DNA of 64,000 nucleotides from Gammaproteobacteria bacterium. Lineage in GTDB: Bacteria > Pseudomonadota > Gammaproteobacteria > Eutrophobiales > Eutrophobiaceae. The translations under genes were made by a program, and so were the position numbers. The notes under the pieces were generated by a model. The model was not told where the DNA came from. It saw only the letters and a list, made by a program, of their open reading frames with translations, and did no database searches. Shown here one piece after another: positions 3,798-51,420 of the stretch. The DNA lies in the NCBI GenBank assembly GCA_021773235.1, contig JAJFKL010000043.1:14072-78071 (forward strand), in the 5' to 3' direction. Each line of letters opens with the position of its first letter. Position 1 is the stretch's first letter.

Positions 3798-5228
3798 ATG
3801 AATGCTGACTTAATCATTGCACTACCAGAGATAACGCTACTTACATTGGCGTGTTTGGTATTGCTAGTGGATGCATTTAGTAAAGATCCATTACATCTGT
3901 TGACGTACTGGACTACTCAAGCAAGTTTGTTAGCTGTCCTGACGTTAGTATTGTATTACTTCCCAGACAATGCACAGATTGCTTTTAATGGTAGTTTTGT
4001 CAGTGATTCCATGAGCGCCATTCTTAAAGCATTTATGTGTGGTATTACCTTTGTGGTATTTCTCTATTCGCATGAATATCTAAAAGAACACAAATCCCTA
4101 AAAGGTGAATACTTCGTGCTTGGCCTGTTTGCAGTACTCGGCATGATGATTATGGCATCGGCCTATAGCTTATTATCTGTCTACCTTGGTCTTGAACTCT
4201 TATCGCTTTCTCTCTATGCCATGGTTGCCATGCAACGTGACTCAAAGACTGCTCCTGAAGCGGCTATGAAATATTTTGTTTTGGGTGCAATAGCATCAGG
4301 TATGTTGCTGTACGGTATTTCAATGATCTATGGTCTAACAGGCTCTCTGGATTTACTTACCATTGCTGAAAGAATTAATGTTGACGATACAAATCATATG
4401 TATCTGGTTTATGGCATGATATTTTTGATTATTGGTATTGCATTTAAACTAGGTGCTGCACCGTTTCATATGTGGGTACCGGACGTTTATCAGGGTGCTC
4501 CTACATCGGTGACCTTGTTTATCAGTACCGCACCTAAACTGGCGGCATTTGCTATGGCGATGCGCGTACTGGTTGATGGTTTAATGCCATTAGTTAGCGA
4601 TTGGCAATCAATCCTGATGATTTTAGCTGTGCTCTCCATGGCTACAGGAAATATTATTGCTATCGCGCAAACCAACATGAAACGCATGTTGGCTTATTCA
4701 ACTATCGCCCATGTTGGGTTCTTATTTCTGGGGCTGATTGCCGGAACAACATCGGGTTTTTCTGGCTCAATGTTTTATATCATCAGTTATGCATTAATGA
4801 GTATGGGTGCGTTCGGCATGATAATCCTGCTTGGCCGTAATGGTTTCGAAGCAGATATGCTTGACGATTTTAAGGGCTTGTCAGAAAGAAGTCCCTGGTT
4901 TGCCTTTGTAATGTTGTGCATCATGTTTTCAATGGCAGGGGTTCCTCCCTTCCTGGGTTTTTGGTCAAAATGGTTTGTATTAAAAGAACTCGTTGCATCA
5001 GGTTTTGTTGAGCTGGCAGCTATAGCCGTTTTATTTTCAATAATCGGTGCTTATTATTATCTTCGTATTATTAAATTAATGTATTTTGATAAACCAGATT
5101 CAATGACAGCGATTAAGTCATCAAAACAAATGCGCTTTGTTTTGAGTGTTAATGGTATTGCTATTCTTGCATTGGGGTTAGCGCCTAATGTATTGATGAG
5201 TCTTTGTTTGGTGGCATTAGCAGGGTAA
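3798..5228 (+). CDS. nuoN: NADH-quinone oxidoreductase subunit N
   Basis: 476-aa membrane protein, antiporter-like fold (APFHMWVPDVYQGAPT). Last gene of the nuo operon. Confidence 0.9.
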   Translation: MNADLIIALPEITLLTLACLVLLVDAFSKDPLHLLTYWTTQASLLAVLTLVLYYFPDNAQIAFNGSFVSDSMSAILKAFMCGITFVVFLYSHEYLKEHKSLKGEYFVLGLFAVLGMMIMASAYSLLSVYLGLELLSLSLYAMVAMQRDSKTAPEAAMKYFVLGAIASGMLLYGISMIYGLTGSLDLLTIAERINVDDTNHMYLVYGMIFLIIGIAFKLGAAPFHMWVPDVYQGAPTSVTLFISTAPKLAAFAMAMRVLVDGLMPLVSDWQSILMILAVLSMATGNIIAIAQTNMKRMLAYSTIAHVGFLFLGLIAGTTSGFSGSMFYIISYALMSMGAFGMIILLGRNGFEADMLDDFKGLSERSPWFAFVMLCIMFSMAGVPPFLGFWSKWFVLKELVASGFVELAAIAVLFSIIGAYYYLRIIKLMYFDKPDSMTAIKSSKQMRFVLSVNGIAILALGLAPNVLMSLCLVALAG

Positions 5229-5238
5229 ACGTTCTTGT

Positions 5239-5300
5239 CATTCCTGCGTAGGCAGGAATCCAGTCTTAATAATTACATTATTCTTTATTTTTAAATTGGT
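5239..5300 (+). terminator. putative rho-independent terminator of the nuo operon
   Basis: Inverted repeat attcctgc-GTAG-gcaggaat (8-bp stem) 11 nt after the nuoN stop, followed by a T-rich tract (ttctttattttt). Confidence 0.4.
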
Positions 5301-5879
5301 TTCGCCTACTACGGCGAGTCCGCTGCTCCTTCGCATCCATGCGATCGCAGCATAAGTACGTCCATGTACAAAACTTTTTATTGCTTGCCCAAGATATAAG
5401 TAATCAAAGACGACATACACGGATGTATTAGTGTCGCGAGAGGACAGGAGTCCGAAGCGATTAAGGGCACCCTAATGTCCTGTCCTGCGGATACCCTCAG
5501 CATTCTTCTATTTCAATGGCACGCGCATACGGACTCCTCGACTCTGTCTCCTGATTCGTTCTACCTCCTGCGTCCATGCAGTCGTGTCCTAATGCGCTCT
5601 CGCAACACACCCCTCAAGGGGGTACCGAGGTCCATGTTGCTCAACCATTGAAATACAAGAATGCCTCGGCAAGTCATAAGGGTATTGATTAAACCTACAC
5701 CATTTGAAGTATGTTAAGAGAGCGTAAAATTCATCCTTTTCGTTAAATTGAGTCAATACCAAATGATATTAACCACGTCTGCTTTTAGTGATGGGTTAAA
5801 ATGTTAATATTCAGCTACCGACCCAAAGCGGACATTATCGTTATAAAATAAAGTACATTTAAATTTTATATAGAATGCT

Positions 5880-6695
5880 TCATTCAGAACATTGACTAAC
5901 TTTATTGATAAGTTGCTTACTAATGCCATGTTCTTGATTGTGTTCTTGTAAGAATTTTGCTTCGATTGTATAAGCCAGTGCTTCCAGCTCGTTTTTACAT
6001 TCAGAATCATCATCAAGATTTTCTTGATACTGCAAATAATGTACTAACTCATGTAGTAGAATGCCTCGACCCACTTCAGTTTTCAAATCAACCGAATCAA
6101 GTAAGTAAATTGCTTCTTCATTAAAATTATATAGCCCGAGAATATTTAAATTCGATGCGTTAACACTAGCAGGAAGTTTTCCTCCAAATGCAACTTGGGC
6201 AATTATTTGTGGGTTAACAAAATTTAATTTCGGCAATTGTTCTATTTTATATTCGAATGATGAATGTTCATTAATCCAATCAAGCAACCCATGCATCAAT
6301 TGCTCAGAGGTAGAAAATATGCTTGTTTGTAAATCAATACGAGGATAAGTTTGTACTTGTTCTAAACTGTTATTTAATGTTACCTCATCTACAATACCAG
6401 TATTATCTGCGATAACATTTTGAGAGAGTATACTTGCAGTGAGTATCAATATTGTAATGACATTTGCAGAAGAGGGATCTTTAACGCGCTTTATTCCTTC
6501 TAAAAAATCAGCGCGTCTATCTTCCTTAATAATGTAATCGTTATTTTTAGCAAAATTAACTAAAGCTAGATAAGCTACAGGATGTTTGTATTCAAGGCCG
6601 CGTTCATAGATAAGAGATCGTTGTCCATTTAAAATACAGGGATGAACCATAAATCTTTTCTTAATCTCATCGATGCTGTTTTTTCTTTTTTTCAT
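5880..6695 (-). CDS. hypothetical protein with HExxH...E zinc-metallopeptidase-like motif
   Basis: 271-aa ORF. C-terminal HELVHYLQ...ELEALAY resembles a gluzincin HExxH + E arrangement. No other recognisable family. Confidence 0.45.
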   Translation of the reverse strand: MKKRKNSIDEIKKRFMVHPCILNGQRSLIYERGLEYKHPVAYLALVNFAKNNDYIIKEDRRADFLEGIKRVKDPSSANVITILILTASILSQNVIADNTGIVDEVTLNNSLEQVQTYPRIDLQTSIFSTSEQLMHGLLDWINEHSSFEYKIEQLPKLNFVNPQIIAQVAFGGKLPASVNASNLNILGLYNFNEEAIYLLDSVDLKTEVGRGILLHELVHYLQYQENLDDDSECKNELEALAYTIEAKFLQEHNQEHGISKQLINKVSQCSE

Positions 6696-6821
6696 ATATG
6701 TAGTAACAAATGAATATTTATATAGCAGGTTAATTAAATTGTCATCGATGAAATATGAGGAATATTTTTTAGATTAGCATTAGAGATTAAATACTGAACA
6801 GTAATTACCTATAATTTAATA

Positions 6822-7895
6822 CTAGTGAAGACCAAACTCTTTGCCGTTTAGCCTTCCATCCTCAACAAGCGTACATGCTGCTGAAAGCGATGGATGATGA
6901 TATTTGTTTGGTTCCTGTTTCATGATTTCAATGGCGTCTTTAAATGAAAGCGCTTGCCGGTATGGACGAACGCCCGCAATTGCTTCTAGAGAATCAGCAA
7001 CTGCAACAATCGAAACTTCGATTGGAATACTAGAGCCTATCAACCCATAAGGGTAACCCGAACCATCCTGATGTTCATGGTGTAACAATACTATATTTTT
7101 TATTTTTTCATCGAAGTCAACTTCACCAAGAATTTCATAGCCAACAACAGGGTGCCGCTTTATAAATTCCCATTCGAATGTTTCTAATGTAGAAGGTTTT
7201 GTTAAAATTTCGGTTGGTACAGAAATTTTTCCAATATCATGAATACTGGCACCGAGTTGAATCATATCTATAGACTCCTGATTCAAACCTAACAATTTGG
7301 CGATCTCAGTAGAGATTGCTGCAGTACGGCTCATATGCCCAACTGTATAGGGATCTCTTTTTTCAATAGTGGAAGTTAATGCAAATGCTGTTTTTTGTAA
7401 TGCTATAATAATATTATTATTTACATTAACTGTAGGAGTGTTGTCTATGAATTCTGCTAGTCGGTATGTGACATTATCAATATTGATAATTAACGGGGAT
7501 ACTGTCGTATATTTAGTATTAGATTCCTTAGTAAGCAAACGTAACTTGTAACGTCCTGGGTTATTTTCACGGATTCGCTTTAATACCATCTCCTGATCTT
7601 GTTTTAAAATTAAATTAGTTACACTTTTCTTATATAATTCATTCCGAGTATAACCGACCATATCTAAGAAAGATTCGTTAGCCGCAACAACTTTACCATC
7701 GACAGATACAACAAATGCTCCTATGACAAAGGGCAGACTATTAGCCATAGCTTCCACGCCACCCTGTCTAAAAACGCTCTCCATAAATATATTAAATACA
7801 TCTTTATACTTGCTATCAATAGATTTAAGTGATGAGCTCATTTGTGAATGTATATCCTTATAATTATTCAAGTCATGTATGTCAGGAGTGTGCAT
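6822..7895 (-). CDS. PAS-domain HD-GYP phosphodiesterase (c-di-GMP signalling)
   Basis: 357 aa. C-terminal HD-GYP signature (HDIGK...HHEHQDGSGYPYGL). N-terminal PAS-like region. Confidence 0.85.
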   Translation of the reverse strand: MHTPDIHDLNNYKDIHSQMSSSLKSIDSKYKDVFNIFMESVFRQGGVEAMANSLPFVIGAFVVSVDGKVVAANESFLDMVGYTRNELYKKSVTNLILKQDQEMVLKRIRENNPGRYKLRLLTKESNTKYTTVSPLIINIDNVTYRLAEFIDNTPTVNVNNNIIIALQKTAFALTSTIEKRDPYTVGHMSRTAAISTEIAKLLGLNQESIDMIQLGASIHDIGKISVPTEILTKPSTLETFEWEFIKRHPVVGYEILGEVDFDEKIKNIVLLHHEHQDGSGYPYGLIGSSIPIEVSIVAVADSLEAIAGVRPYRQALSFKDAIEIMKQEPNKYHHPSLSAACTLVEDGRLNGKEFGLH

Positions 7896-7914
7896 AGTGT
7901 TTCTAATATAAAGA

Positions 7915-8319
7915 CTAGTGTAGAAGATCTTTATTGTGAATTAATTTCAATATATCCAGTGTTGAAATTATACCGTTACATTCTTTTCCATTAATTTCTA
8001 TATCATTAACTAAAATATGATGAACATGATTATTTAACATTAGTGTAATGACATCATTGATACTTGCACCCTTAGAAACACTTAATAACTTATGACTACA
8101 TATTTCCCATGCATGGGTTGCTTTCGTATTTTTCTGTTCTTTTTCTGCGATTAAAATATTAGCTTCTGTTATTACGCCAAATATTTTCTTATCATCATCT
8201 ACCACTACTACGCAGGAATGGTTCAGCCAATCATTATTGTTTTTTATCTTTTCAATTGAGTCATTGAAGTCGGAGTATTTTATTGCGTTGGCTATATCAG
8301 AAGCGTAAATGTTATCCAT
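7915..8319 (-). CDS. CBS-domain protein
   Basis: 134 aa with two CBS-like repeats (VVVDDDKKIFGVITEANIL; HHILVNDIEINGKECNGIISTLDIL). Confidence 0.7.
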   Translation of the reverse strand: MDNIYASDIANAIKYSDFNDSIEKIKNNNDWLNHSCVVVVDDDKKIFGVITEANILIAEKEQKNTKATHAWEICSHKLLSVSKGASINDVITLMLNNHVHHILVNDIEINGKECNGIISTLDILKLIHNKDLLH

Positions 8320-8751
8320 GATATTTGTCCGTCCATGTGTAACTCAGATTTTACATTTTAGGTAATGTAAAAAAACATTGTTAAGTCCTTCAAAGTTCAA
8401 GGAATGACAGTTAACAACTACTGAATTTAAAAAATTCACAATTTGCTAGGATAAGTATAGTTCTTTATTGAAAATTAACAGAATTATTATTTAAAGTTCT
8501 GATATATAACAACTTATTATGCTACATAATTTTGATTATATTTAAGCTATAGAGCTCTATATTGCCTTTGCATCAACATGTAAAGTTGTCATAAGTGCGA
8601 TTAATGCTTTTGCAAAATGATACCCTTAGAGAATACATGAAATACCGCTTATGGCCGAATGCAGAGTTTTAATTTTAACGCTCCAAAGCGGAAGTTAAAT
8701 ATCTATTAATATGAAATGAAATAAATAGGGGTAGACCGCGATTTTCCTACG

Positions 8752-8970
8752 ATGCCAAAAATAATTCTAGAATCTGTGCTTACTTGCCCTGAATGTGATC
8801 ACTGTAAGTAGGAAACTATGCCTACTGATTCATGTTTGTATTTTTATGAGTGTGAATAGTGTCATTCGTTGCTTAAGCCACAAGCTGGGGGTTGTTGTGT
8901 GTTTTGTTCTTATGGGACTGTTAAATGCCCACCGATTCAAGAAGGGGGAAAGTCTTGTTGTAAATGGTAA
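8752..8970 (+). pseudogene. small Cys-rich GDCCVxC-type ORF interrupted by two in-frame TAG codons
   Basis: A single frame reads MPKIILESVLTCPECDHCK*ETMPTDSCLYFYECE*CHSLLKPQAGGCCVFCSYGTVKCPPIQEGGKSCCKW*. Both internal stops are TAG and there is no frameshift. Motifs CPxC, FYEC and GxCCVFCSYG recall the small Cys-rich GDCCVxC protein family. Confidence 0.4.
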
Positions 8971-9374
8971 TTAGTATTCAGCAAGAATAATGTTAATCGC
9001 TTCTTGCATGTGTTCTGTCCAGAGTGCTTCAAGTCCTGATGTGAATTCTGGGTCATGTTTCTTTACGGTTTCGCAAAGACTATCTAACCATAAATTATAA
9101 AGTTCTGGTTTTATATTGAGGTTATCTTCCTTGTGAGTCTTGGCCACCATTGCCAATGTATTTTGTGTTCTTTTGTCTTCCAATGGAAAACGTATCATGC
9201 TGGTGACGGTTGCCTTTAATAATTTCTTTTGTTTATAAAATCAGTATTGGCAAAGAGTGGTGGGATTTCATCTGAAATAGATAGAAAGAGATCATAAAAT
9301 GTATCGTAAAACCCATCTGTCTTTACACAGCGGTTGTAACTTTCTTTTACAATTTCGTATGTTTCTGTGCTCAT
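8971..9374 (-). pseudogene. single-domain globin-like gene, apparently frameshifted
   Basis: Minus-strand ATG at 9374 encodes MSTETYEIVKESYNRCVKTDGFYDTFYDLFLSISDEIPPLFANTDFINKRNY* (about 52 aa). A 75-aa ORF (8971..9198) in another frame continues ...KRTQNTLAMVAKTHKE...ALWTEHMQEAINIIL. Together they resemble a bacterial single-domain (Vitreoscilla-type) globin split by a frameshift near 9200-9230. Confidence 0.4.
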
Positions 9375-9422
9375 TATATGGTTATTGCGTATAGGGGAAG
9401 GGTGCGTTAAATAGTGATGTGA

Positions 9423-9839
9423 TCACTGATTACTGCGTGATCGAATGACTTCGGCCGGTATTCCTAATTGAAATATCAGATATTCTTTAAAGTCGGCTTC
9501 GTATGCTTGTTCATCAATACTTTCTTTCATACAAGTTAGCCATTGATCACGTTCATCTGTACCTATTGATAGATGTTGGTGTACAGAAGGGATGCTGATG
9601 GGGCCGTATTTTTCTTGATATCGTTTAGGGCCACCTAGCCAACCGCAGAGGAATCTTGCGAGTTTGTCGATTGATATTTCTATATCGTCGGGGTGCATAT
9701 TATAGATGGTGCTAAACCGAGGGTCGCTTCCCATACGGTCGTAAAAATTATCGACCAGTTTTCTTATGCCTTCTTCTCCTCCTGCTGCCTGAAAAGAGGT
9801 GTCTCCTGTGCCATAGCTCATATTATTTTCTTTACTCAT
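9423..9839 (-). CDS. glbO: group 2 truncated haemoglobin (trHbO)
   Basis: 138 aa with FYDRMGSDPRFSTIY...HQHLSIGTDERDQWLTCM characteristic of 2/2 haemoglobin group II. Confidence 0.8.
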   Translation of the reverse strand: MSKENNMSYGTGDTSFQAAGGEEGIRKLVDNFYDRMGSDPRFSTIYNMHPDDIEISIDKLARFLCGWLGGPKRYQEKYGPISIPSVHQHLSIGTDERDQWLTCMKESIDEQAYEADFKEYLIFQLGIPAEVIRSRSNQ

Positions 9840-9886
9840 TATTCAGTTCTTCACTTTTCCTAATTATTGTTGTTTATAAGCTAATG

Positions 9887-10687
9887 CTAGTTATTAGACT
9901 CTGTGCTTTGTTTTTCAGCAATAGCGGCTTCACTTGATGCCATCCAATAGCCAACCGCCATAAAGAGACTGCCACCGATAATATTTCCTATCGTGACCCA
10001 CAACAGGTTATAGAACATGCCTGCAAGGGAAATGGTGTCCGGGTGTTCAGATAACAGAGAGATACTTAGCAACGTCATATTAGCAACACTGTGTTCAAAT
10101 CCACTAGCTATAAAGGCAAGCAGACACCAAAAGATGGCGATACATTTTGCAACTTCATTTTTGAGTCTGGCTGCCATCCATAAGGCGAGACATACCAGCC
10201 AATTACATAGAACGGCTCTTGCAATAAGCTCAATCACTGGAGAATTCATTTTGTATTCGGCCACTTTATGTAGCAGGCCAATACCGCCGTGAAGTAATTC
10301 ACCACCGCCACCGGCAACAAACAATACGGCAAGCAACACAGAGCCAATAAGGTTTCCAATCCAAGCTGCAGTCCATACCTTGCTTAGATCTAGTAGGCTG
10401 GTCTGTTTCTTTAACCAACCGAGTACCATATACATGGTATGTCCGGTAAAGAGTTCGGAACCCGCAAATACTACTAATGTAAGGGCGATACCGAAGGTCG
10501 CTCCCATTATCAATTTTTGAAAAGCTGGTGGAACTTGTCCAGCGACACTGAATATCAAGATAATCCCTAGGCCAACATAGGCACCGGCCATCATTGCACC
10601 CACTAGAAAGGCCAATGGTGAATGTTTGAGTACTCTTGTCTTTTGAACTGCAACACCTGAAAAATAATCGATAGTTTCTGAATACAT
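9887..10687 (-). CDS. formate/nitrite transporter (FNT) family channel (NirC/FocA-like)
   Basis: 266 aa, 6 TM. FNT signatures (LALTLVVFAGSELFTGH; LCNWLVCLALW; FEHSVANM). Confidence 0.85.
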   Translation of the reverse strand: MYSETIDYFSGVAVQKTRVLKHSPLAFLVGAMMAGAYVGLGIILIFSVAGQVPPAFQKLIMGATFGIALTLVVFAGSELFTGHTMYMVLGWLKKQTSLLDLSKVWTAAWIGNLIGSVLLAVLFVAGGGGELLHGGIGLLHKVAEYKMNSPVIELIARAVLCNWLVCLALWMAARLKNEVAKCIAIFWCLLAFIASGFEHSVANMTLLSISLLSEHPDTISLAGMFYNLLWVTIGNIIGGSLFMAVGYWMASSEAAIAEKQSTESNN

Positions 10688-10791
10688 TAAATCTTCACCA
10701 TGGTTGTGATTTCAAAAATATGTTTTGACATATTAAAAGTTGCATATAAGATATAACAATAAATTATTCTTGGCAATATGGAGAACTGAAA

Positions 10792-11319
10792 ATGCAGGAA
10801 ATCGCTTGGACTATTACTTTGGTGTTGATGTTGGTCATTATCGCTACCTTTGTATTCGTTGTTCTAAACTCGGGGCAGGTAGCTGAATATGAACCTGTAA
10901 AGAAACGTTTTTATTCGGTACGTACTGGTTTGTTCTGGGTGCTTGCCGTTGGCTTTGTTGTCGTAATGTTAAGTTCATATCAAGGTATGCCATATGCTGC
11001 TCAGCATAGGTCTGAAAATCCTATTGGTACTCAGGTTATCGATGTTGAAGGTTTTCAGTGGTACTGGAAGTTAAGTAGTAATGAAGTAAAGGCAAACCAA
11101 CCAGTTGTTTTTAACGTCACCAGTGGTGATGCAAATCATGGTTTTGCAATCTATGACGAATCATTAACGTTGCTGGCACAAACACAAGCGATGCCGGGTT
11201 ATATCAATAAGCTTGAGTATGTATTCAAGGAGCCAGGTACTTATAAGATTCTTTGCTTAGAATATTGCGGTATGGCACACCATTCTATGGTGTCAGCTAT
11301 AGAAGTCGTAGCAGAATAA
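10792..11319 (+). CDS. haem-copper oxidase subunit II (CuA cupredoxin, single N-terminal TM; ba3-like)
   Basis: 175 aa with one TM helix then a cupredoxin domain. CuA ligand motif H...CLEYCGMAHHSM. Confidence 0.8.
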   Translation: MQEIAWTITLVLMLVIIATFVFVVLNSGQVAEYEPVKKRFYSVRTGLFWVLAVGFVVVMLSSYQGMPYAAQHRSENPIGTQVIDVEGFQWYWKLSSNEVKANQPVVFNVTSGDANHGFAIYDESLTLLAQTQAMPGYINKLEYVFKEPGTYKILCLEYCGMAHHSMVSAIEVVAE

Positions 11320-11334
11320 AATCAGGAGAATAAT

Positions 11335-12795
11335 ATGTCGTCATCAATTTCTGTAATTCATCCGAACTTAAGTGCAGGTGCTAGAAAGACGCTTTTAACT
11401 TATCTAGCAATCAGTGCCGTAGTATTTTTACTCATGATGGTATTTGGTGCGAGTATGCGCTATGAGCAAAGCGAGTGGCTAGGTATGGGGCCGCAGTATT
11501 TTTATCAGATCATGACCGCGCATGGTATCGGTATGATTGGTATAGTTGGCTTGGCTGCCAGTGCGGTAATGTGGTTTTTTCTGTCTCGTCACGTTCAGTT
11601 AAGTACGCCAATATTAGTTGCTAATCTGGTTTTCTTTTTGATTGGTGTTGTATTAATACTGGGTGCAATATTTATCGGTGGATTTGCAGCAGCCTGGACA
11701 TTTCTTTATCCGTTACCTGCGATGGGCAAAGGAGTATGGGGAAATCATGCCGCTGCCAGTTATTTAGTTGGCCTTTTGCTGATAGGCGTAGGCTTTCTAC
11801 TGCTCTATCTGGATACTGCACGCGGTATTATGAAGAAATATGGAAATCTCGGAAAAGCACTGGGGTGGCCACAATTGTTCTTTAATAGTCAGGATGAAGC
11901 ACCGCCATCGGCTGTTATTGCAAGTACCATGGTATTGATCGTCAATATTGCCGGTATAGCTGCAGGTGCAGTTGTGCTTGTACTAAGCTTGGTCAATCTT
12001 TATATGCCGTCATATGAACTGGATCCTTTATTAGTAAAGAATCTGATATATTTTTTCGGACATGTATTTATTAACGCTGCTATTTATCAGGCAGTCATCG
12101 CCGTGTATGAAATTTTACCGCTCTACACCAATCGGCCGTGGAAACCGACTAAGGTTTTTATATTGTCGTGGACCTTATCAACCTTGATGGTGATGTCGGT
12201 ATACCCTCATCATTTATTAATGGATTTCGCTATGCCTAAATGGGCACTCATCATGGGACAAATTATTTCTTATATGAGTGGTTTCCCGGTATTGGTTGTC
12301 ACGGCGATTGGTGCTTTGACCCTAATCTATCGTTCCGGGATTAAATGGGACGTGACATCACGTTTATTAATCTTATCTATGCTTGGTTGGGCTTGTGGTG
12401 TTATTCCGGCAATAGTTGATGGCACGATTAGCGTTAATAATGTTATGCATAATACCTTATGGGTACCGGGTCATTTTCATATCTATCTTTTATTAGGTTT
12501 ATTGCCGATGCTATTTGGATTTATGTATTACCTCGTTCAGAGTAATGGTAATAAAGTCGGTGCTGTCGATGATGTTGCATTTTGGTTTTATCTAGTAGGT
12601 GGGATGGGTTTTGTCACCATGTTTTTACTGAGCGGTAAAGAAAGTATTCCACGTCGCTGGGCGGCGCATTTAAGTGAGTGGGTGCCTTATGATCGAATTG
12701 CATCTGTTTTTGCAACGTTAGTTGTTATTGGTGCACTAGTTTTTGCCTATCGCTTTTTGACTCGACTAAGCCGGATAAATATCGCTACATCGTGA
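11335..12795 (+). CDS. haem-copper oxidase subunit I, B-family-like
   Basis: 486 aa, 12 TM. All six canonical His ligands are present (IMTAHG; FFGHVF; YPHHLL; VPGHFHIY). Short, with no subunit III gene, like ba3-type enzymes. In a gapless motif comparison from memory, the position of the cross-linked Tyr (H+4) is Asn (GHVFIN). Confidence 0.85.
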   Translation: MSSSISVIHPNLSAGARKTLLTYLAISAVVFLLMMVFGASMRYEQSEWLGMGPQYFYQIMTAHGIGMIGIVGLAASAVMWFFLSRHVQLSTPILVANLVFFLIGVVLILGAIFIGGFAAAWTFLYPLPAMGKGVWGNHAAASYLVGLLLIGVGFLLLYLDTARGIMKKYGNLGKALGWPQLFFNSQDEAPPSAVIASTMVLIVNIAGIAAGAVVLVLSLVNLYMPSYELDPLLVKNLIYFFGHVFINAAIYQAVIAVYEILPLYTNRPWKPTKVFILSWTLSTLMVMSVYPHHLLMDFAMPKWALIMGQIISYMSGFPVLVVTAIGALTLIYRSGIKWDVTSRLLILSMLGWACGVIPAIVDGTISVNNVMHNTLWVPGHFHIYLLLGLLPMLFGFMYYLVQSNGNKVGAVDDVAFWFYLVGGMGFVTMFLLSGKESIPRRWAAHLSEWVPYDRIASVFATLVVIGALVFAYRFLTRLSRINIATS

Positions 12796-13415
12796 ATCGA
12801 TACAGCCTTATTAGCACTACACTAGTTTTAATAATCTCTGCTGCCGTCTGGTGGCAGGGAACCAGTGGCTTTAAGGCTTTTACTAGCGAGGCGGCAAGAA
12901 GGATTGATGTTTTAGAATACCCGAGAAAGCTATCAGGACTAGATTTTGAGAATCAGACCTTTGAAAATATTAATTTTTCAGATTATAAAGGCAAGGTAGT
13001 TCTACTAGATTTCATCTATACCAGTTGTCCCGATATATGCTATGCCCTAGGTTTTTCTTTTAAATCAATCAAGGCAGAACTTGAAGAAGCAGGACTGCAA
13101 GAACAAATACAGATAGTTAATATTACTTTTAATCTTGAACAAGATACACCGGAAAGATTAAGCGCATATGTGCAACGTTATACGTCCGACCATGATATGT
13201 GGCACGGTCTTCGATTAAAAGATCCCGGTCAGTTAAAACAACTTTTGTCAGACTTTGGCGTTGTTGTCATTCCTAATGAACATGGTGGCTTTGACCATAA
13301 TGCAGCAATTCATATACTGGATAAAGAAGGTCGTCTGGTGGGTATTCACGATTATCAGTCTCAACAACAGATCGTTGCCCAGATACGTGAGCAAATTAGT
13401 GCAACTGTGTTATGA
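12792..13415 (+). CDS. SCO1/SenC family copper chaperone
   Basis: 207 aa. CxxxC motif (SCPDICYALG) and conserved His (DHNAAIHILD). GTG start overlaps the coxA-like stop (GTGA). Confidence 0.75.
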   Translation: MNRYSLISTTLVLIISAAVWWQGTSGFKAFTSEAARRIDVLEYPRKLSGLDFENQTFENINFSDYKGKVVLLDFIYTSCPDICYALGFSFKSIKAELEEAGLQEQIQIVNITFNLEQDTPERLSAYVQRYTSDHDMWHGLRLKDPGQLKQLLSDFGVVVIPNEHGGFDHNAAIHILDKEGRLVGIHDYQSQQQIVAQIREQISATVL

Positions 13416-14011
13416 GCCGCTCTATCTTGTTTTTCGTGTTGTTTTTATACCTGTTAAGTTATTCAATCATTGGTCAATGGTTTGAAGTCTCTATGGTAAG
13501 GCATGTATTAATTCAGATACCCTGTCTTGTTCTGGCGGGATACTTGTTTGGCCGTAAATCCCTTATTAATAATCGGTTTCTTATTTTAATAAACGATAAA
13601 GGCCTTGCCGGTATATTGATGTGTATTTTTATCGGTGGCTATTGGATGTTGCCACGTGCACTGGATGCGGCATTGGCAGGATCAAATATGGCATTGGTTA
13701 AATATATTTCATTACCATTTTTTGTAGGAATACCACTGGCAATTAGTTGGCAAAGAATTCACCCCATTGCCAGAGCAGTAATCAAGATTGAATTCCTGAC
13801 GATGTTGTTTCGTTTAGGTTGGCTCTATCTGGTTTCTCCAAATAGGCTGTGTAATTTTTACCAATTAAATGAACAAATAATTCTAGGTAAGTGTTTTCTT
13901 ATTATTGCTACATCGCTTTCGTTGTACTGGATTTTGCAATTGTTTGCAGAGGATTATCGAGAACAGGAAACGCTGAAAAAAAATAATCTATATGATCAGG
14001 CCAGTAGTTGA
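13412..14011 (+). CDS. polytopic membrane protein, possible cytochrome oxidase assembly factor (CtaG/Caa3-type?)
   Basis: 199 aa, about 6 TM. ATGA overlap with the upstream sco. Assignment is by context only. Confidence 0.35.
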   Translation: MSRSILFFVLFLYLLSYSIIGQWFEVSMVRHVLIQIPCLVLAGYLFGRKSLINNRFLILINDKGLAGILMCIFIGGYWMLPRALDAALAGSNMALVKYISLPFFVGIPLAISWQRIHPIARAVIKIEFLTMLFRLGWLYLVSPNRLCNFYQLNEQIILGKCFLIIATSLSLYWILQLFAEDYREQETLKKNNLYDQASS

Positions 14012-14415
14012 TTTAATTTAATTTTATTAGTGATGATGTCGTCCAGAGAATATCCATCAAGGACATTTAGAAAAGCCTCGGTTGCCTCATTTAGTACCGA
14101 CTTAAGGCTGCATGCAGGGACGAAAGGGCACGCAGGTTCTGAACAATTTACTACATCCAGTGTCTGTTCTGTATTACGTATTACTTCGCCAACGCTGAGT
14201 GAGTCGGGTTCGTATGCCAACTCAAGACCACCACCACGGCCGCGTTTGGAAATAACATAGCCCAGTTTTACCAGATGGTTGACCACCTTGATTAGATGGT
14301 TGCGGGAAATATTAAATGATTCGGCAATATCGGAAATATTGCCTAGTTTTTCGGGTCTTAATGCTAGATACATTAAGACTCGCAGAGAATAATCTGAATA
14401 GCGTGTTAGATGCAT
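13996..14415 (-). CDS. nsrR: Rrf2-family transcriptional regulator, NsrR-like
   Basis: 139 aa. N-terminal wHTH (MHLTRYSDYSLRVLMYLA). Three Cys with Cx4Cx5C spacing (CSEPACPFVPAC), the NsrR pattern as opposed to the IscR Cx5Cx5C pattern. Confidence 0.75.
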   Translation of the reverse strand: MHLTRYSDYSLRVLMYLALRPEKLGNISDIAESFNISRNHLIKVVNHLVKLGYVISKRGRGGGLELAYEPDSLSVGEVIRNTEQTLDVVNCSEPACPFVPACSLKSVLNEATEAFLNVLDGYSLDDIITNKIKLNQLLA

Positions 14416-14493
14416 AGTTATATTTTAGTCTATTAGACTAAATAAAGCATATTAAATGCAACATTAATGTGAGAGGTAAAATCTACACATAGA

Positions 14494-15372
14494 CTATGAC
14501 TTACCTAATATTTGTCCTACCTGAATAGCGTTCCCAGTAGCCAGATTCTCTAGCCAATTTAATTTATTCTTTTCAAACACAAGTATGACTGTTGAACCCA
14601 TGTTGAAGTGTCCAAATTCCTGTCCTTGTTCAAGGATTACTGGGTTATCTTTGTATTCTTTAATAATTAATTGACGGGTATAAGGTGGCGTTATCTGTCC
14701 TAACCATACGGTTTCCATGCTGCCGACGAAGATGGCACCGACCATAATCTGGGCCATTAGTCCTAAGTCCGTTTCAAAAATAGTAATAAATCGTTCGTTA
14801 CGCGCAAATAGGTTATCAACGTTTCTAACTGTCGCATTATTTACCGCGAATAAATCACCAGGGACATAGATTGATTTTATCAATTTGCCTCTAACTGGCA
14901 TGTGTATGCGGTGATAGTCTCTAGGTGATAGATATAAGGTCGTAAACAATCCATCGCTTAGTTTTGCGATGGTGTCTGTATCGTTGGCCAAGAGTGTATC
15001 GAGAGTATAGGTTTTCCCCTTGGCTTGTATTATGTTGTTGTTATCCAATTTTCCAATTTGACTAATGGCACCATCTACTGGACTAAGGATACTGCTTTTA
15101 TTCAAGTTCCATGTTCTTGCAGATTGTTTCAGATGACGTGTAAAGAAATCATTAAACGAAATATAGTCTTCTGCAGTTTCTCTTTCAGCTTGATTCAGCT
15201 CGACATTGTATAGATTGACAACTTGATTGATTAACAGGTTTTTCCAGGGCTTAAATTGAATCCTCGTTAGCCAATACATTAGCTTTGATAAACTATGTTG
15301 TGGAATAAGGTATTGAGGCCAGACTTTAATACAATCCATTATTCCAGAATTAGATGTTGGTGTTTCAGACAT
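14494..15372 (-). CDS. psd: phosphatidylserine decarboxylase proenzyme
   Basis: 292 aa. Conserved FFTR and the C-terminal GST autocleavage site (FGHFNMGSTVIL). Confidence 0.85.
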   Translation of the reverse strand: MSETPTSNSGIMDCIKVWPQYLIPQHSLSKLMYWLTRIQFKPWKNLLINQVVNLYNVELNQAERETAEDYISFNDFFTRHLKQSARTWNLNKSSILSPVDGAISQIGKLDNNNIIQAKGKTYTLDTLLANDTDTIAKLSDGLFTTLYLSPRDYHRIHMPVRGKLIKSIYVPGDLFAVNNATVRNVDNLFARNERFITIFETDLGLMAQIMVGAIFVGSMETVWLGQITPPYTRQLIIKEYKDNPVILEQGQEFGHFNMGSTVILVFEKNKLNWLENLATGNAIQVGQILGKS

Positions 15373-15374
15373 AA

Positions 15375-15863
15375 TTAATGATGGTGATGTGAGTGATCTT
15401 CACTGCTATGGTCATGACTAGTTCGGCGTTCTACTTTTGCTTCTATGGTTTGATTGTGTCCATCAGAAAATGAAAAGTTGAGTGTTGCAGTATCGCCGGA
15501 GCGTAACGGCTTATCTGGATCAAATAACATCAGATGCAAATCGCCAGGAGATAACGTAAGAGTATTCTTTGCAGGTATTTCTAATGATTCTTGTTTTTCC
15601 ATAGAAACCATATCGCCATTTAATACGCTACGGTGGATTTCAACCTTAGAAAAGTTTGGGCTAGAAACGGATATTAGTGTTATTGGTTTATCTGAGGCAT
15701 TGTGAATATTTGCATATCCTGCAAGGACAGATAGCGTTGGAGGTGCCTCACTAATCCATGCATCAGAAAAACTAACTGCCACATTTTCATTGGTAAATGC
15801 AGAGCTGGAAAAAAGTATTTGAAAAATAAATGTAATCAGTAGAAATAAATTAACTTTGTTCAT
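15375..15863 (-). CDS. periplasmic copper chaperone PCu(A)C (DUF461)
   Basis: 162 aa with signal peptide. H(M)x10M...HxM motif (EIHRSVLNGDMVSM...DLHLMLF). His-rich tail HDHSSEDHSHHHH. Confidence 0.6.
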   Translation of the reverse strand: MNKVNLFLLITFIFQILFSSSAFTNENVAVSFSDAWISEAPPTLSVLAGYANIHNASDKPITLISVSSPNFSKVEIHRSVLNGDMVSMEKQESLEIPAKNTLTLSPGDLHLMLFDPDKPLRSGDTATLNFSFSDGHNQTIEAKVERRTSHDHSSEDHSHHHH

Positions 15864-16503
15864 TTATGAAGTTTTTTATTGTAGTGAACTGTTGGATGAT
15901 TTTGTTTTTCTCGTGAGGTGGAGATAGTTTGCCAACCATTCGACCTAAAGGGTCGATTAGAAATATTGAAGCTGAATGATCCACCAGATAGTCTTCAGCT
16001 TGATTCTCGTTATTCAAATAATAAGCAACGCCGATTTGGCCTGTGAGGCTAGTTATCATTTCATTAGTACCACCGAGACCAATAAAATCGGGATTGAAAT
16101 AACTGACATACTGGGACAGTATTTCTGGTGTATCGCGTTCCGGATCGACTGATGCAAATATAAGCTGTAGATCATTATTATCGCCGACAAGCTCTTTATA
16201 GGAGTCGGCCATCACAGACATTGTCACTGGACAGACATCCGGGCAATGGCTGTAACCAAAAAAAATGAAAGACCATTTACCCTTTATCTGGTTTAAACCA
16301 AAACCATTCCCATCTTGATCAAGAACAGAAAACTCATTTATTTGTTTTGGGTTTGGCCAAAACAAGCCCTCTATATTGGAAACAGCTTGCTGAGACTGTT
16401 GTGATTGTTTTACTGAAATATAGAATCCTGCACTGGTCGCTAACATGGCGAGAATGGCCATTGCCGGGATTAAAAATTTGCTATTGCTGAGTTTATTTAA
16501 CAT
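15850..16503 (-). CDS. SCO1/SenC family copper chaperone (second paralog)
   Basis: 217 aa. FGYSHCPDVCP CxxxC motif and DHSASIFLIDP. Confidence 0.8.
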   Translation of the reverse strand: MLNKLSNSKFLIPAMAILAMLATSAGFYISVKQSQQSQQAVSNIEGLFWPNPKQINEFSVLDQDGNGFGLNQIKGKWSFIFFGYSHCPDVCPVTMSVMADSYKELVGDNNDLQLIFASVDPERDTPEILSQYVSYFNPDFIGLGGTNEMITSLTGQIGVAYYLNNENQAEDYLVDHSASIFLIDPLGRMVGKLSPPHEKNKIIQQFTTIKNFINEQS

Positions 16504-16852
16504 TGCAGTATTATACCTGAACTAGACAATGGGTTGATGTTCTTAAAAGACCTGCTTTTTGTGAATTACTGCGAAAATTTTAAAGAAAATGAAATAGAAC
16601 CCGTTATATTCACTATGAATTCATGGTGATTAAGCTAGATGATGTCAATTTATTAATATTTGGCTCATCTAACGTTTCAATTTTGACCGTATAAGAGCTT
16701 GATACGTTCAAATTTGATATATGTGATTATCCTGCTAAATCAATGATTTATTGAACTAAATATTTAATAAATAAGGTTAAGTGTGGCATCATTGGTCTTA
16801 CTAAGACGCACCACGGTAACAAATACGGAATGCAATAATCAGGGGTTATGCA

Positions 16853-18331
16853 ATGAGAGTTAATATGAAGGCAATTTCAATTTCGATTTTATCGATATTT
16901 TTATCATTTCCTAATGTTGTTTTGGCAGCGGGCGATGCACACTTGCAGGATTTTACTGCTCATTGGGCAGGCATCGTTTGCCTTGTCGTTTTTGTTCTCG
17001 CCTATAGTCTGGTTGTTTTTGAAGACCAACTTCATATGCGAAAGTCTAAACCGGTGATGGTTGCTGCGGGTATTATCTGGATGTTTGTTGCCATTGTTTA
17101 TACACAAAGTGGTGATCAACATACGGCTGAAATTATGATTCGTCATAACCTGCTTGAATTCGGTGAATTATTTCTGTTTTTACTTGCTGCGATGACCTAT
17201 ATCAATACCATGGCGGAACGTAATGTATTTGATGCCTTACGTGCTTGGCTGGTATCACAAGGATTCTCATTAAGAACTATTTTCTGGATAACTGGCGTTA
17301 TATCTTTTCTTTTATCTCCTATAGCTGACAACCTTACTACGGCATTATTGATGTCGACCGTGGTGATGGCAGTAGGGGGTACTAATACAAAATTTATTGC
17401 AATTGCCTGTATCAATATTGTGGTAGCTGCTAATGCAGGCGGTGCATTTAGCCCGTTTGGCGATATAACTACCTTAATGGTCTGGCAAAAAGGTGTTATT
17501 CCTTTCGCAACTTTCTTTGCCTTAGTAATTCCTTCAGTGGTCAACTGGATAATACCTGCAGTGATCATGTCAATGTTTGTTGCTAAAGATAGGCCAGATG
17601 CGATTGATGAAAAGGTTGAATTAAAAGAGGGTGCTTTTATTGTTGTTGGTATGTTCATCATGACTATCAGCATGGCGGTTAGTGCACATAATTTCCTACA
17701 TTTACCACCGGTCATAGGCATGATGACGGGATTGGGTTTACTCAAACTGTTTGGTTATTATCTGAAGATGAAGAATATGCGTGCTCTAAAACAGAAAAAA
17801 CAAGCGTATGAATACACTCCTGGTGCCGGTGCATTAGATGCAGAATCAATTAGTGCGAGCGATCATACTGAAGAAGAAACCTATGATATCTTTGGGATAT
17901 TGGCAAAGGCCGAGTGGGATACGCTGATGTTTTTCTATGGTGTTATTTTATGTGTCGGTGGTCTGGGTACCATGGGTTATCTTGCTGCACTCTCTCAGTT
18001 TATGTATATCGATCTGGGACCAACAACGGCCAACGTACTAGTTGGTATCGTGTCAGCCATCATTGATAATATTCCGGTAATGTTTGCGGTGTTAACTATG
18101 ATGCCGGAGATGGATTCAGCGCAATGGTTGTTAGTGACATTAACTGCAGGTGTAGGTGGCTCATTACTCTCTGTTGGTTCTGCTGCGGGCGTTGCGGTAA
18201 TGGGACAAGCTAGAGGCATATATACCTTTTTTGCCCATCTTAAATGGACTTGGGCAATTGCATTAGGTTATGCCGCTAGCATTTGGGTACACTTCTTGGT
18301 TAATGGCCGTTTTATAGGTGTGCCAGTTTAA
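16853..18331 (+). CDS. nhaD: Na+/H+ antiporter NhaD
   Basis: 492 aa, about 12 TM, NhaD/ArsB-superfamily architecture. N-terminal region as in vibrio NhaD. The start may lie at a downstream Met. Confidence 0.75.
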   Translation: MRVNMKAISISILSIFLSFPNVVLAAGDAHLQDFTAHWAGIVCLVVFVLAYSLVVFEDQLHMRKSKPVMVAAGIIWMFVAIVYTQSGDQHTAEIMIRHNLLEFGELFLFLLAAMTYINTMAERNVFDALRAWLVSQGFSLRTIFWITGVISFLLSPIADNLTTALLMSTVVMAVGGTNTKFIAIACINIVVAANAGGAFSPFGDITTLMVWQKGVIPFATFFALVIPSVVNWIIPAVIMSMFVAKDRPDAIDEKVELKEGAFIVVGMFIMTISMAVSAHNFLHLPPVIGMMTGLGLLKLFGYYLKMKNMRALKQKKQAYEYTPGAGALDAESISASDHTEEETYDIFGILAKAEWDTLMFFYGVILCVGGLGTMGYLAALSQFMYIDLGPTTANVLVGIVSAIIDNIPVMFAVLTMMPEMDSAQWLLVTLTAGVGGSLLSVGSAAGVAVMGQARGIYTFFAHLKWTWAIALGYAASIWVHFLVNGRFIGVPV

Positions 18332-25977: not shown

Positions 25978-26086
25978 AGCGATGTTAAATTAGGGCACAT
26001 AGTGACAATCATTAAAAATTATTAATGTTTGTCGCTACTCTCTTTCCCCTCATTCTTATCAGTGTTTGTCATGCAACGCGCTGATA

Positions 26087-27145
26087 TCAACAGAGTTTCT
26101 CATGAATGTCTGCCATAGGCAAACGACGGCCACTGAATCGGAAAAGGGTCTTTAAAGCCCACTCATTGCCAACAAAGAGGCTGGTGAAAAATATCGTCGC
26201 TTTGACGCTGCGGCGGCTTATTTTTACTTCTTGACCGGTAGTAAAATTAGGCTTTTGCCGGATCTTTTCAAGCGTTAATACAGCCATTCCCAAAGCCCAT
26301 AGACAAAAACGACGCAGGCCCTTTTCTTTAGCAGGTATTTTCAGGGTATACAGTAAGGCATTGTGAATATGAGCATGCGCAACACCAAGCAATTCAATCA
26401 AGGCCTCATCAAACCCGGCTTCATTTTTGCCAAGTACCTTATGGCGTATATCGACCCCATATTTATTGAAAATATCACGTGGTAACCAGCAAGCCCCGCG
26501 TTCATGGTCTTCCCAGATGTCCTTCAAAATATTGGTCATTTGCAATCCCTGACCAAATGACACGCCTAATTGCATCATTTCTTCTCTTTGGGCATCAATT
26601 TCAGGGGAATAATCACAGAATAATTCGGTCAGCATCTCTCCAACCACGCCGGCAACGTAATAACAATATTGCCCCATGTCTTTCAAGTCAGCCATTCCAT
26701 CCAGCGTCTCGGCATCTTGATAACGAACCATGCCCTCGGCCATGATTGAGACACAGCGTTCGAGTGCTGTTCGCTGTCGTTCATTAAAACCATGGGTGAT
26801 TCGAATCACTGGAGCTGTATTGGCAATTAGATCATGCTCTGCCTCAGTGGCGGTTGGGGATAATAAAGGAAACAGGCCTTCAGCAAAGGTTTCAGCGCCA
26901 TCAGTACCTTTCACTACTTGAATAAATTGCTCAGCGTATTCACGTTTCAAGGCGGCCGTCATCAATTTATCATCTTCAATCGTATCGGCTATACGACATA
27001 AGAGATAGGCATTGCCAACAACCTCACAGAGTGATTCTGGTAATTGTGGAATGGTCAGTGCAAATGTACGGGAGACGTGCTGCAATATCTCATTCTGATA
27101 GGCGATATCATCCAGCTCGGTCGTAAATTCGTTTTTAGACTTCAT
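26087..27145 (-). CDS. squalene synthase (trans-isoprenyl diphosphate synthase, head-to-head; SQS/HpnC-D family)
   Basis: 352 aa. Asp-rich motifs CRIADTIEDD and NILKDIWED, plus YCYYVAGVVGEM. Its length fits a single-enzyme squalene synthase. Confidence 0.75.
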   Translation of the reverse strand: MKSKNEFTTELDDIAYQNEILQHVSRTFALTIPQLPESLCEVVGNAYLLCRIADTIEDDKLMTAALKREYAEQFIQVVKGTDGAETFAEGLFPLLSPTATEAEHDLIANTAPVIRITHGFNERQRTALERCVSIMAEGMVRYQDAETLDGMADLKDMGQYCYYVAGVVGEMLTELFCDYSPEIDAQREEMMQLGVSFGQGLQMTNILKDIWEDHERGACWLPRDIFNKYGVDIRHKVLGKNEAGFDEALIELLGVAHAHIHNALLYTLKIPAKEKGLRRFCLWALGMAVLTLEKIRQKPNFTTGQEVKISRRSVKATIFFTSLFVGNEWALKTLFRFSGRRLPMADIHEKLC

Positions 27146-27439
27146 TCTTTAAAATAATCCATTAAAAAACAATGTGTTATAAAAAGCAGCTATAATATTA
27201 AGCCCTATCAGCATGAATCTTGTGCAAAGCATCAGAAATCATGATGTTACCGGGTATAATTCCAGAAAAATGATACAATTCAACAATTAGGGCGATTCGG
27301 TGCTGCACATTACAGCCTCAATTATACGGATGCAAATAATCAATTCTGAATCCCCAAGACTAATTTTAATGAATGGAATTTAAATGTCTGATAATTTTCC
27401 GGCATTTCACACACCTTATATATAAAAGAGAGTAAAAGA

Positions 27440-29119: not shown

Positions 29120-29124
29120 TAGTA

Positions 29125-40141: not shown

Positions 40142-40245
40142 GAAGATGAAACTCCTTTAAGATTACCGTTTTATATTATTATTATTACTTTATTCTATGC
40201 TTTCTCAGCTGAATATAAAGCATTATTAGCAATGTATTACCAAAT

Positions 40246-43486: not shown

Positions 43487-43490
43487 CTGA

Positions 43491-45009: not shown

Positions 45010-45033
45010 AAGGTATTACACATCGCCGGATGT

Positions 45034-45456: not shown

Positions 45457-45504
45457 AAAATTAATATTAACCATGTGACAATTTATATTTAAGTTAAGGA
45501 TGCT

Positions 45505-49841: not shown

Positions 49842-49903
49842 ACAATTCACTTCAATTTATTACGATTAAATTCATCAAACCCCGGTTTAATGGGAGGACA
49901 ATT

Positions 49904-51415: not shown

Positions 51416-51420
51416 GTAAT

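Follow-up and report, generated by a model that had tools for sequence, protein, structure and literature searches.

A nitric oxide reductase-type (sNOR) gene cassette with genes for a NirC-type channel and an NsrR-like regulator in an uncultured gammaproteobacterium

The genes norSY-senC-orf1, formerly named coxB2A2 (bioRxiv 10.1101/765727), encode the 'other' nitric oxide (NO) reductase (NOR) of the ammonia oxidisers (PMC4940428), and this family is now known as sNOR. It includes the 'type II qCuANOR' of B. azotoformans and G. thermodenitrificans, which has a 12-helix subunit I with Asn in place of Tyr, a two-helix CuA subunit, a SenC paralogue and a 4–5-helix protein (Heylen & Keltjens, PMC3475470). 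In N. oceani, an NsrR gene, Noc2967, lies beside senC-norY-norS in the cluster Noc2967-2971 (PMC3772326), so that a linkage between NsrR and sNOR is already on record. Here, we describe a locus of this type in a 64-kb stretch of DNA (64,000 nt, positions 14,072–78,071 of contig JAJFKL010000043.1, assembly GCA_021773235.1), hereafter the window, from an uncultured marine-type gammaproteobacterium. The original prediction for this DNA, made from the sequence, had described a coxB-coxA-sco-membrane protein operon encoding a ba3-like oxidase and lying among genes for NO and nitrite handling.

The four genes norS, norY, senC and orf1, together with a divergent FNT channel gene on one side and a regulator gene, rrf2, on the other, make up a self-contained 4.5-kb cassette of six genes (at about 9.9–14.5 kb; Table 1) that, in our judgement, is likely to serve the sensing and removal of NO. 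The open reading frames (ORFs) of the window were annotated by Pfam and NCBIfam profile matches, and the ORF list gives the same genes at the same coordinates as the earlier gene map. The operon had been described as compact and translationally coupled, and its junctions, a 15-nt gap between norS and norY, a GTGA overlap between norY and senC and an ATGA overlap between senC and orf1, agree with that description. The 79 homologues used to assess conservation came from 78 loci in GTDB genomes and from several contigs of metagenomes (homologous loci are given L numbers below). In 68–78 of the 79 loci, which belong to the Gamma-, Beta- and Alphaproteobacteria, Bacillota, Gemmatimonadota and one cyanobacterial bin, the genes run in the order subunit II, subunit I, Sco, Orf1, and the FNT gene and rrf2 flank the four genes in approximately 20 gammaproteobacterial loci. 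Because the module is retained in loci from several phyla and is flanked in this way in some 20 of them, the clustering of the FNT gene, norSY-senC-orf1 and rrf2 is not due to chance.

The closest solved structure to NorY is the ba3 oxidase of T. thermophilus (E 4e-7), though the similarity is very low. When the two were aligned, H63 and H382 of NorY were found at the positions of the low-spin haem ligands of ba3 (H72 and H386), H380 at that of the high-spin haem ligand (H384), and H243, H292 and H293 at those of the ligands of the B-site metal, CuB (H233, H282 and H283). These six histidines are invariant in 77–79 of the 79 homologues, the exceptions being two alignment gaps at H63. As in ba3, there is a CuA subunit II, and the K-channel residue Y248 of ba3 is kept as Y258 of NorY, which is invariant. 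However, the position of the cross-linked Tyr237 of ba3 is occupied in NorY by Asn247, and by Asn in 79/79 homologues. NorY is also about 80 residues shorter at the C-terminus than ba3, and the equivalents of ba3 S309 (S312 in NorY; S in 61 and G in 17 homologues) and ba3 T312 (N in 50 and S in 25) are not conserved in the family. Y251 and E259 are likewise invariant in the 79 homologues. Tyr251 (window about 12085–12087) is four residues past Asn247 and eight past His243, where ba3 has Leu, and at two helical turns from H243 it is too distant along the helix for a classical cross-link. For the sNOR family, the K channel is recognised by an S309 equivalent that is not conserved together with a family-specific Glu, and E259 is presumed to match the published Glu.

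In NorS, the CuA site is complete, its ligands (H116, C155, E157, C159, H163 and M166) being conserved in 78–79 of the 79 homologues. Hydropathy analysis revealed 12 segments in NorY and two in NorS, and the length of subunit I ranges from 475 to 499 aa across the homologues, a combination that sets the enzyme apart from bNOR and ba3. The locus therefore resembles sNOR/'type II qCuANOR' as described (Stein 2007; Hemp & Gennis 2008; Heylen & Keltjens 2012; Murali et al. 2024) in having the same four genes in the same order, a CuA subunit II with two transmembrane (TM) helices, a short 12-TM subunit I with the six His residues and the Tyr-to-Asn replacement, and an invariant Glu that is presumably the one described for the K-channel region. 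The SenC paralogue, the 4–6-helix membrane protein and an adjacent NsrR-type gene, as in Noc2967-2971 of N. oceani, are further shared features. NorY is 56 % identical to its counterpart in G. thermodenitrificans (L075, a 'type II qCuANOR' locus), where a divergent haem A synthase gene lies beside the four genes as published for GTNG_1516-1520, and this neighbour ties the family found in the window to the published type II cluster. On the basis of its sequence, the window enzyme is assigned to the sNOR family and is not a new ba3-like oxidase. Of the original prediction, the CuA and haem-copper genes stand but the identification as a ba3-like oxidase does not, as the enzyme belongs to a family that already has a name.

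Other families, including the B-family-derived nNOR, gNOR and eNOR, were considered and set aside. In nNOR, the low-spin haem is bound by His/Met and there is a cNOR-like site with Glu, whereas both low-spin ligands in NorY are His, and in gNOR, one B-site His is replaced by Asp and CuA is lacking, whereas the window enzyme has three B-site His residues and a full CuA site. The bNOR of B. azotoformans (qCuANOR), which has been purified and is an electrogenic NO reductase, is similar in that it is derived from the B family, has CuA, three His plus Asn and linked genes for SenC and a multi-helix protein. However, its subunit I, at about 568 aa, has 13 helices and a ba3-like K channel, it has an extra upstream gene for a 46-aa subunit, and it forms a separate clade found only in Bacillales (Murali et al., PMC11214002). 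With 486 aa for NorY and no space in the window for a small ORF upstream, bNOR was ruled out. Membership of the B-family (ba3-type) O2 reductases was also rejected as the His-Tyr cofactor of helix VI is missing, with Asn247 found instead.

In SenC, a divergent Sco-type copper chaperone or thiol-disulfide protein, C79-x3-C83 and H169 are invariant in 71/71 homologues. The orf1 gene is present in 78 of the 79 loci, and a database search with Orf1 returned 57 relatives, all unnamed. A weak match to DUF1404 (PF07185; best E 7e-7) was seen for 22 of the 45 Orf1 homologues aligned and not for the window Orf1 itself. An AlphaFold model built from the homologue alignment is all-helical, with a predicted local distance difference test (pLDDT) score of 92.4, and no PDB match to this model was found using Foldseek. 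The invariant residues are W78, P81, D85, W113, Y139, R145, C147 and Y150, and the polar ones (D85, R145, C147, Y150 and others) do not form a recognisable copper motif. Orf1 is regarded as an sNOR-linked membrane protein that is remote kin of DUF1404 and acts either as a third subunit or in assembly. A 314-aa SenC-Orf1 'fusion' (P0152) was examined as possible Rosetta-stone evidence and discarded, as it lacks the C-terminus of SenC and the N-terminus of Orf1, which points to a deletion or an assembly artefact.

The boundaries of the cassette can be seen when the window is compared with its relatives. The nearest, L080 (NorY 93 % identical), is collinear with the window from nuoL to beyond psd, save for window 5225–9444, which is represented by 120 bp in L080. 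With L082 and L083, nucleotide similarity is 72–75 % and is confined to 9938–14458, from the FNT gene to rrf2. These loci together with L086 and L087 form the window clade. The six-gene cassette was found in at least five different flanking contexts, with transposase genes a few kb off in two of them. The FNT gene is followed by a second Sco gene in other gammaproteobacteria. L085 seems to contain a cassette in decay, as its FNT gene is in two pieces (L085 5018–5846) and no norS was called.

A rearranged version is present on the megaplasmid of the alphaproteobacterium Ruegeria pomeroyi DSS-3 (L084; NC_006569.1, 190.9–204.3 kb), where the order is a group III truncated haemoglobin gene, ccoNOQP, a divergent Rrf2 gene and then the genes for subunit II, subunit I, SCO, Orf1, FNT and a cytochrome c. 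The enzyme corresponds to SPO_RS20745-20760. The R. pomeroyi subunit I (53 % identity) includes HVFINASIY and VYEILP and is labelled 'cbb3-type cytochrome c oxidase subunit I' in RefSeq. The promoter there has a perfect 13-1-13 palindrome, ATATTAGGTATTT-A-AAATACCTAATAT, just downstream of a TTGACA box. This recurrence in rearranged form across classes is good evidence that the genes of the cassette work together. In the literature, we found no paper tying sNOR specifically to a neighbouring nirC, and none tying R. pomeroyi to a megaplasmid NO reductase.

The protein encoded by rrf2 scores 138 bits against the NsrR model of NCBIfam, the best of the Rrf2 models, compared to 118 bits for RirA and 50 bits for IscR. 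The best PDB match is NsrR of S. coelicolor (ScNsrR; 5N07, E 5e-18), with IscR at E 3.5e-8. Grouping with IscR or RirA would have told against the original prediction, and on both measures the protein sides with NsrR. C91, C96, C102 and D8 align to C93, C99, C105 and D8 of ScNsrR, and all four residues are invariant in 20 rrf2 homologues that neighbour sNOR loci. The NsrR Cx4Cx5C pattern previously noted is present as C91-x4-C96-x5-C102, and this spacing with Asp8 matches NsrR by the E. coli numbering. We predict an NsrR-like repressor with a [4Fe-4S] cluster held by C91, C96, C102 and D8. The rrf2 gene is co-directional with and follows orf1 in more distant gammaproteobacteria, whereas in the window it is convergent. 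The sole plus-strand terminator-like hairpin after the operon (14323–14343) is inside rrf2, and read-through from the operon would therefore run antisense to the repressor gene.

In NsrR regulons (hmp, nnrS, norB and nirK), three-Cys Rrf2 proteins are likewise found with palindromes over the promoters of NO-detoxification genes; these regulons also recruit nitrite transporters and, in Legionella, include a truncated globin among their targets (Rodionov et al. 2005, PMC1274295). The published consensus is gATGyAT-N5-ATrCATc (PMC1274295). In the FNT-norS spacers of distant gammaproteobacteria (L001–L003, L005, L006, L042, L062 and L067), one or two strong palindromes, AAyATGyA-N7-TACATrTT, equivalent to this consensus were found. 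With a position weight matrix built from ten sites in relatives, they score 19–27 bits, the maximum in 20 Markov-shuffled 64-kb windows being 17.1. The window locus differs from the known regulons in that the target is an sNOR operon and the box of the window clade differs at its second position (T for A) and is degenerate in its right half. This box, GTTGCAT-N5-ATAYAAC, lies over the -10 of norS, within a block, TTGAC ... AAAGTTGCATATAAGATAYAAC, that is conserved in the window, L080, L082, L083 and L087 and is looser in L086.

The two boxes in the window, GTTGCAT-ATAAG-ATATAAC at norS and GTTGCAT-TTAAT-ATGCTTT upstream of rrf2, agree with the consensus at 11–12 of 14 positions (gATGyAT/ATrCATc) and at 9–10 of 12 core positions (ATGCAT/ATrCAT). 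The sequence GTTGCATNTAANAT occurs exactly twice in the 64 kb, in the norS promoter and upstream of rrf2, in each case pointing toward the gene. The box upstream of rrf2 holds the only GCAT-W5-ATGC in the 64 kb, and the boxes at this position in L082 (GTTGTAT-ATTAT-ATACATT) and L080 (GTTTCAT-TTTAT-ATACATT) are nearer to the consensus. Autoregulation via this box is possible. No FNR box (TTGAT-N4-ATCAA, with up to two mismatches) was found in 10688–10791 or 14416–14493. Hence, the search for NsrR and FNR boxes proposed with the original prediction uncovered a variant NsrR-like box, and neither a match to the canonical NsrR matrix nor an FNR box.

Two further palindromes were noted. One, AATATGT-N4-ACATATT (about 10719–10736), was rejected as an operator since it is not kept in L080 and includes the -35 element. 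The other, a perfect palindrome, TTTAGTCTA-T-TAGACTAAA at 14424–14442, lies 9–27 nt upstream of the rrf2 start, over the expected ribosome-binding region, and L080 and L082 retain it in part. Such a palindrome might serve as a second operator or form a hairpin in the RNA.

Table 1. Genes, promoters and candidate operators at the sNOR locus (window coordinates)
Feature	Position	Strand	Details
Frameshifted globin	8971-9374	-	ORFs 8971-9198 (C-terminal part; PF00042, E 1.6e-5) and 9216-9374, in different frames
trHbO	9423-9839	-	2-on-2 globin, PF01152 at 1.5e-25; 47 nt downstream of the FNT gene
FNT gene (NirC-type channel)	9887-10687	-	PF01226 at 3.6e-68; divergent from norS
norS promoter	10725-10752	+	TTGACA-16-TAAGAT; one of two joint-best (10/12) sigma-70 matches in 8300-16900 (8.6 kb)
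Candidate Rrf2/NsrR operator	10739-10757	+	GTTGCATATAAGATATAAC; overlaps the norS promoter, over the -10
FNT gene promoter	10776-10748	-	TTGCCA-17-TATCTT; weaker; overlaps the box at 10739-10757
norS	10792-11319	+	COX2/CuA subunit II, PF00116; two N-terminal TM helices
norY	11335-12795	+	COX1 subunit I, PF00115 at 8e-50; 486 aa, 12 TM helices
senC	12792-13415	+	SCO1/SenC, PF02630 at 4.8e-17
orf1	13412-14011	+	Membrane protein, five to six helices; window protein without Pfam match
rrf2	13996-14415	-	Rrf2 regulator, PF02082 at 2.3e-34; convergent with orf1, 16-nt overlap
Second candidate operator	14444-14462	-	GTTGCATTTAATATGCTTT; 29-47 nt upstream of rrf2

The FNT protein scores 297.9 bits on the NirC equivalog model of NCBIfam (NF008595), which passes the cut-off of 293, and is well under the cut-offs of the FocA models. 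The best PDB matches for the product of trHbO are all to group II truncated haemoglobins (4UUR, 1UX8, 2XYK, 2BMM and 1NGK; E 1e-17 to 1e-9), and group I entries are matched at E near 3e-4. The earlier description of a group II truncated haemoglobin gene co-oriented with an FNT channel gene is thus correct. The FNT gene and trHbO are probably co-transcribed, as no terminator was predicted in the gap between them. However, trHbO is in the corresponding position only in L080, L081 and L087 and is missing from L082, L083, L085 and L086. In L087, a TehB-like gene (PF09313) lies between the FNT and truncated haemoglobin genes (L087 3893–5381). The second globin gene is frameshifted, as had been reported. 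After a 1-nt repair near 9235–9239, it encodes a protein of 134 aa, residues 8–132 of which align unbroken to PDB 1TU9 (E 5.5e-20), an end-to-end relative that is PA3967 of P. aeruginosa. Hence, it is a PA3967-type single-domain globin gene, either a pseudogene or the product of a sequencing error, and is outside the conserved cassette. The NO and nitrite gene cluster originally proposed is a conserved unit from the FNT gene to rrf2, but trHbO belongs to it only in the nearest relatives and the split globin gene is in an unrelated insertion.

From the gene content, the active-site residues, the conservation and portability of the module and the operator-like motifs, all of which are observed, we infer the reaction catalysed, the B-site metal, the electron donor and the response to NO. 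The CuA site of NorS would take electrons from a periplasmic donor, and the bis-His low-spin haem (H63/H382) would relay them to a binuclear site made up of the high-spin haem (H380) and a metal on H243, H292 and H293. As the redox-active Tyr is replaced by Asn247, four-electron reduction of O2 is disfavoured, and the likely reaction is 2 NO + 2 e- + 2 H+ -> N2O + H2O, with protons possibly coming from the cytoplasm via a modified K-type channel that includes the invariant Y258 and E259. SenC, with its CxxxC...H motif, may load or reduce the CuA site, and Orf1 would be an obligatory membrane partner, as a subunit or assembly factor. The NirC-type channel is expected to carry nitrite/HNO2 across the membrane, and the group II truncated haemoglobin could scavenge NO or O2. 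The Rrf2 [4Fe-4S] repressor is envisaged as sitting where the -10 elements of the norS and FNT gene promoters face each other, and before rrf2, until nitrosylation of the cluster by NO releases it.

The role of sNOR is disputed, the enzyme being seen either as an NO reductase or as a high-affinity oxidase, and several observations weigh against the cassette being an NO-inducible sNOR module. Since none of the sNOR enzymes has yet been purified or otherwise characterised biochemically (PMC11214002), NO reductase activity is deduced from the active site. The sNOR genes of N. europaea are up 2.7- to 10.8-fold under O2 limitation, and the authors prefer a high-affinity oxidase and argue for it from the B-family ancestry (bioRxiv 10.1101/765727). 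The presumed likeness to the reference sNOR sequences (Nitrosomonas NE0684, N. oceani Noc2970 and Damo_0802) is drawn from published descriptions, with L075 as an indirect anchor. It is also the case that no gene for a nitrite reductase or other N-oxide enzyme was found among the ORFs scanned, which were those of the 64 kb outside 29125–35907, 51421–62082 and 62583–62936, and because of this the window cannot separate detoxification from energy-conserving partial denitrification, either of which may be the role. On an alternative view, the enzyme would be mainly an NO-tolerant, high-affinity terminal O2 reductase for hypoxia, and the NsrR, NirC and haemoglobin context would mark conditions where low O2 and NO coincide. 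The ba3 oxidases are indeed the nearest solved structures, and a CuA site, an Sco protein in the gene set and a PCuAC-Sco pair nearby would suit an oxidase. However, O2 reduction in the superfamily is held to need the His-Tyr cofactor, the Tyr is absent and replaced by an invariant Asn in every homologue, and NO reductase activity has been demonstrated for bNOR, whose active site is the same (PMC11214002). Murali et al. found no migrated Tyr (PMC11214002), and Y251, though invariant, is two helical turns away from H243. Nitrococcus mobilis, which makes N2O with sNOR as its sole recognisable NOR (PMC5665590), provides indirect physiological evidence in the same direction. We consider a primary role in O2 reduction to be unlikely.

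A different uncertainty surrounds the signal. The Rrf2 score of 138 bits is under the curated cut-off of 182 for the NsrR equivalog (NF008240) and the RirA score is only 20 bits lower. The variant box pattern is circular, having been made from the two sites that it then matches, and because of this the exactness of the two sites is suggestive only. The canonical NsrR matrix finds no match of at least 4 bits in the promoter region of the window, and its best match elsewhere in the window (11.8 bits) is within the range seen for shuffled sequence. The operator of the window clade departs from the NsrR consensus, and the R. pomeroyi counterpart of Rrf2 has a different Cys spacing and a different palindrome. 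The regulator might then sense iron, Fe-S status or redox, as do RirA, IscR and RsrR, with the cassette under metal or redox control. Against this, Asp8 and the Cys residues match NsrR, ScNsrR is by far the best solved relative, canonical NsrR boxes are found with the rrf2 orthologues that occupy this position in other gammaproteobacteria, and the N. oceani neighbour is annotated as NsrR (PMC3772326). A signal other than NO is, in our view, improbable. It is more improbable still that the globin genes, the channel gene and the oxidase-like operon are adjacent by accident and do not form a functional 'island'; we give this little credence. The split globin gene is in an insertion missing from the nearest relative and trHbO is missing from four loci, but an accident would account only for the globins, as the FNT gene, norSY-senC-orf1 and rrf2 are found together in at least five contexts and in an alphaproteobacterium. 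An NO-inducible sNOR module for NO sensing and removal is thus the reading that we regard as probable. The earlier view that the operon encodes an NO-reductase-like enzyme working in an NO/nitrite context, and not a housekeeping oxidase, is upheld by Asn247, the NsrR-like Rrf2 protein and the recurrent gene association across classes.

As sNOR with an NsrR neighbour is already known from N. oceani, the window is a new example and not a new system. Unlike the nitrifiers in which sNOR has been described, the host is an uncultured organism with about 40 % GC and no nitrifier mark in the 64 kb. Unlike the published sNOR loci, this one adds a divergent NirC-type channel gene (and trHbO), a convergent overlapping rrf2 and an operator with TTGCAT for ATGCAT. 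What is new here is incremental, namely a six-gene FNT-sNOR-NsrR cassette in uncultured gammaproteobacteria, with evidence that it moves as a unit and with a clade-specific operator variant. sNOR is one of the recently delineated NOR families thought to hold much of the environmental N2O-forming capacity, and the locus adds comparative evidence on the NO side of the dispute, in that sNOR travels with an NsrR-type repressor and operators, a nitrite channel and a truncated haemoglobin in gammaproteobacteria and, rearranged, in R. pomeroyi. Cultured carriers able to settle the role are R. pomeroyi DSS-3, Thauera aromatica and G. thermodenitrificans. The labels 'cbb3-type' or 'cytochrome c oxidase subunit I' here again hide a probable NO reductase. 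More speculatively, and we hold this only tentatively, the cassette may be a horizontally mobile, self-regulating element that lets otherwise non-denitrifying aerobic marine bacteria turn NO into N2O, with Orf1 as an obligatory component (e.g. a third subunit or a factor deciding the B-site metal) and the overlapping convergent rrf2 adding antisense feedback in the window clade.

The surrounding DNA includes several other features. The 4.2-kb insertion at 5225–9444, for which no bounding repeats were found, includes orf271 (weak DUF3579/DUF6647), genes for a PAS+HD-GYP protein (6822–7895) and a CBS-pair protein (7915–8319), a non-coding, AT-rich stretch of about 430 nt and two disrupted genes, the PA3967-like globin gene and a GDCCVxC ORF. 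The latter (8752–8970, + strand) scores 98 bits against the GDCCVxC (seleno)protein domain of NCBIfam (cut-off 40) and its Cys pattern is intact, with in-frame TAG codons at 8809–8811 and 8857–8859; it may be a recent pseudogene. No RNA family was found in 5000–17000 using Rfam. On the other side, genes for Sco, PCuAC and phosphatidylserine decarboxylase (14494–16503, - strand) adjoin the cassette and are common only to L080/L081. This Sco protein has a family score of 142 bits compared to 63 bits for SenC of the operon, and the PCuAC protein has a His-rich C-terminal tail, HDHSSEDHSHHHH. The remainder of the window includes nuo, hopanoid, polyketide-like and type II secretion genes. The ORFs at 48846–49841 and 49838–51415 have no Pfam match. 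Genes for a squalene-hopene cyclase and a squalene synthase-like protein (hopanoid) and a FabD/enoyl-reductase-type gene are in 24010–35907 and 48846–62082, together with giant ORFs of 2260 and 3553 aa that are presumably polyketide or adhesin-like. On the - strand, 38000–48613 contains a full set of type II secretion genes in one cluster (secretin, GspM/L/K/J/I/H/G-like, GspF and GspE).

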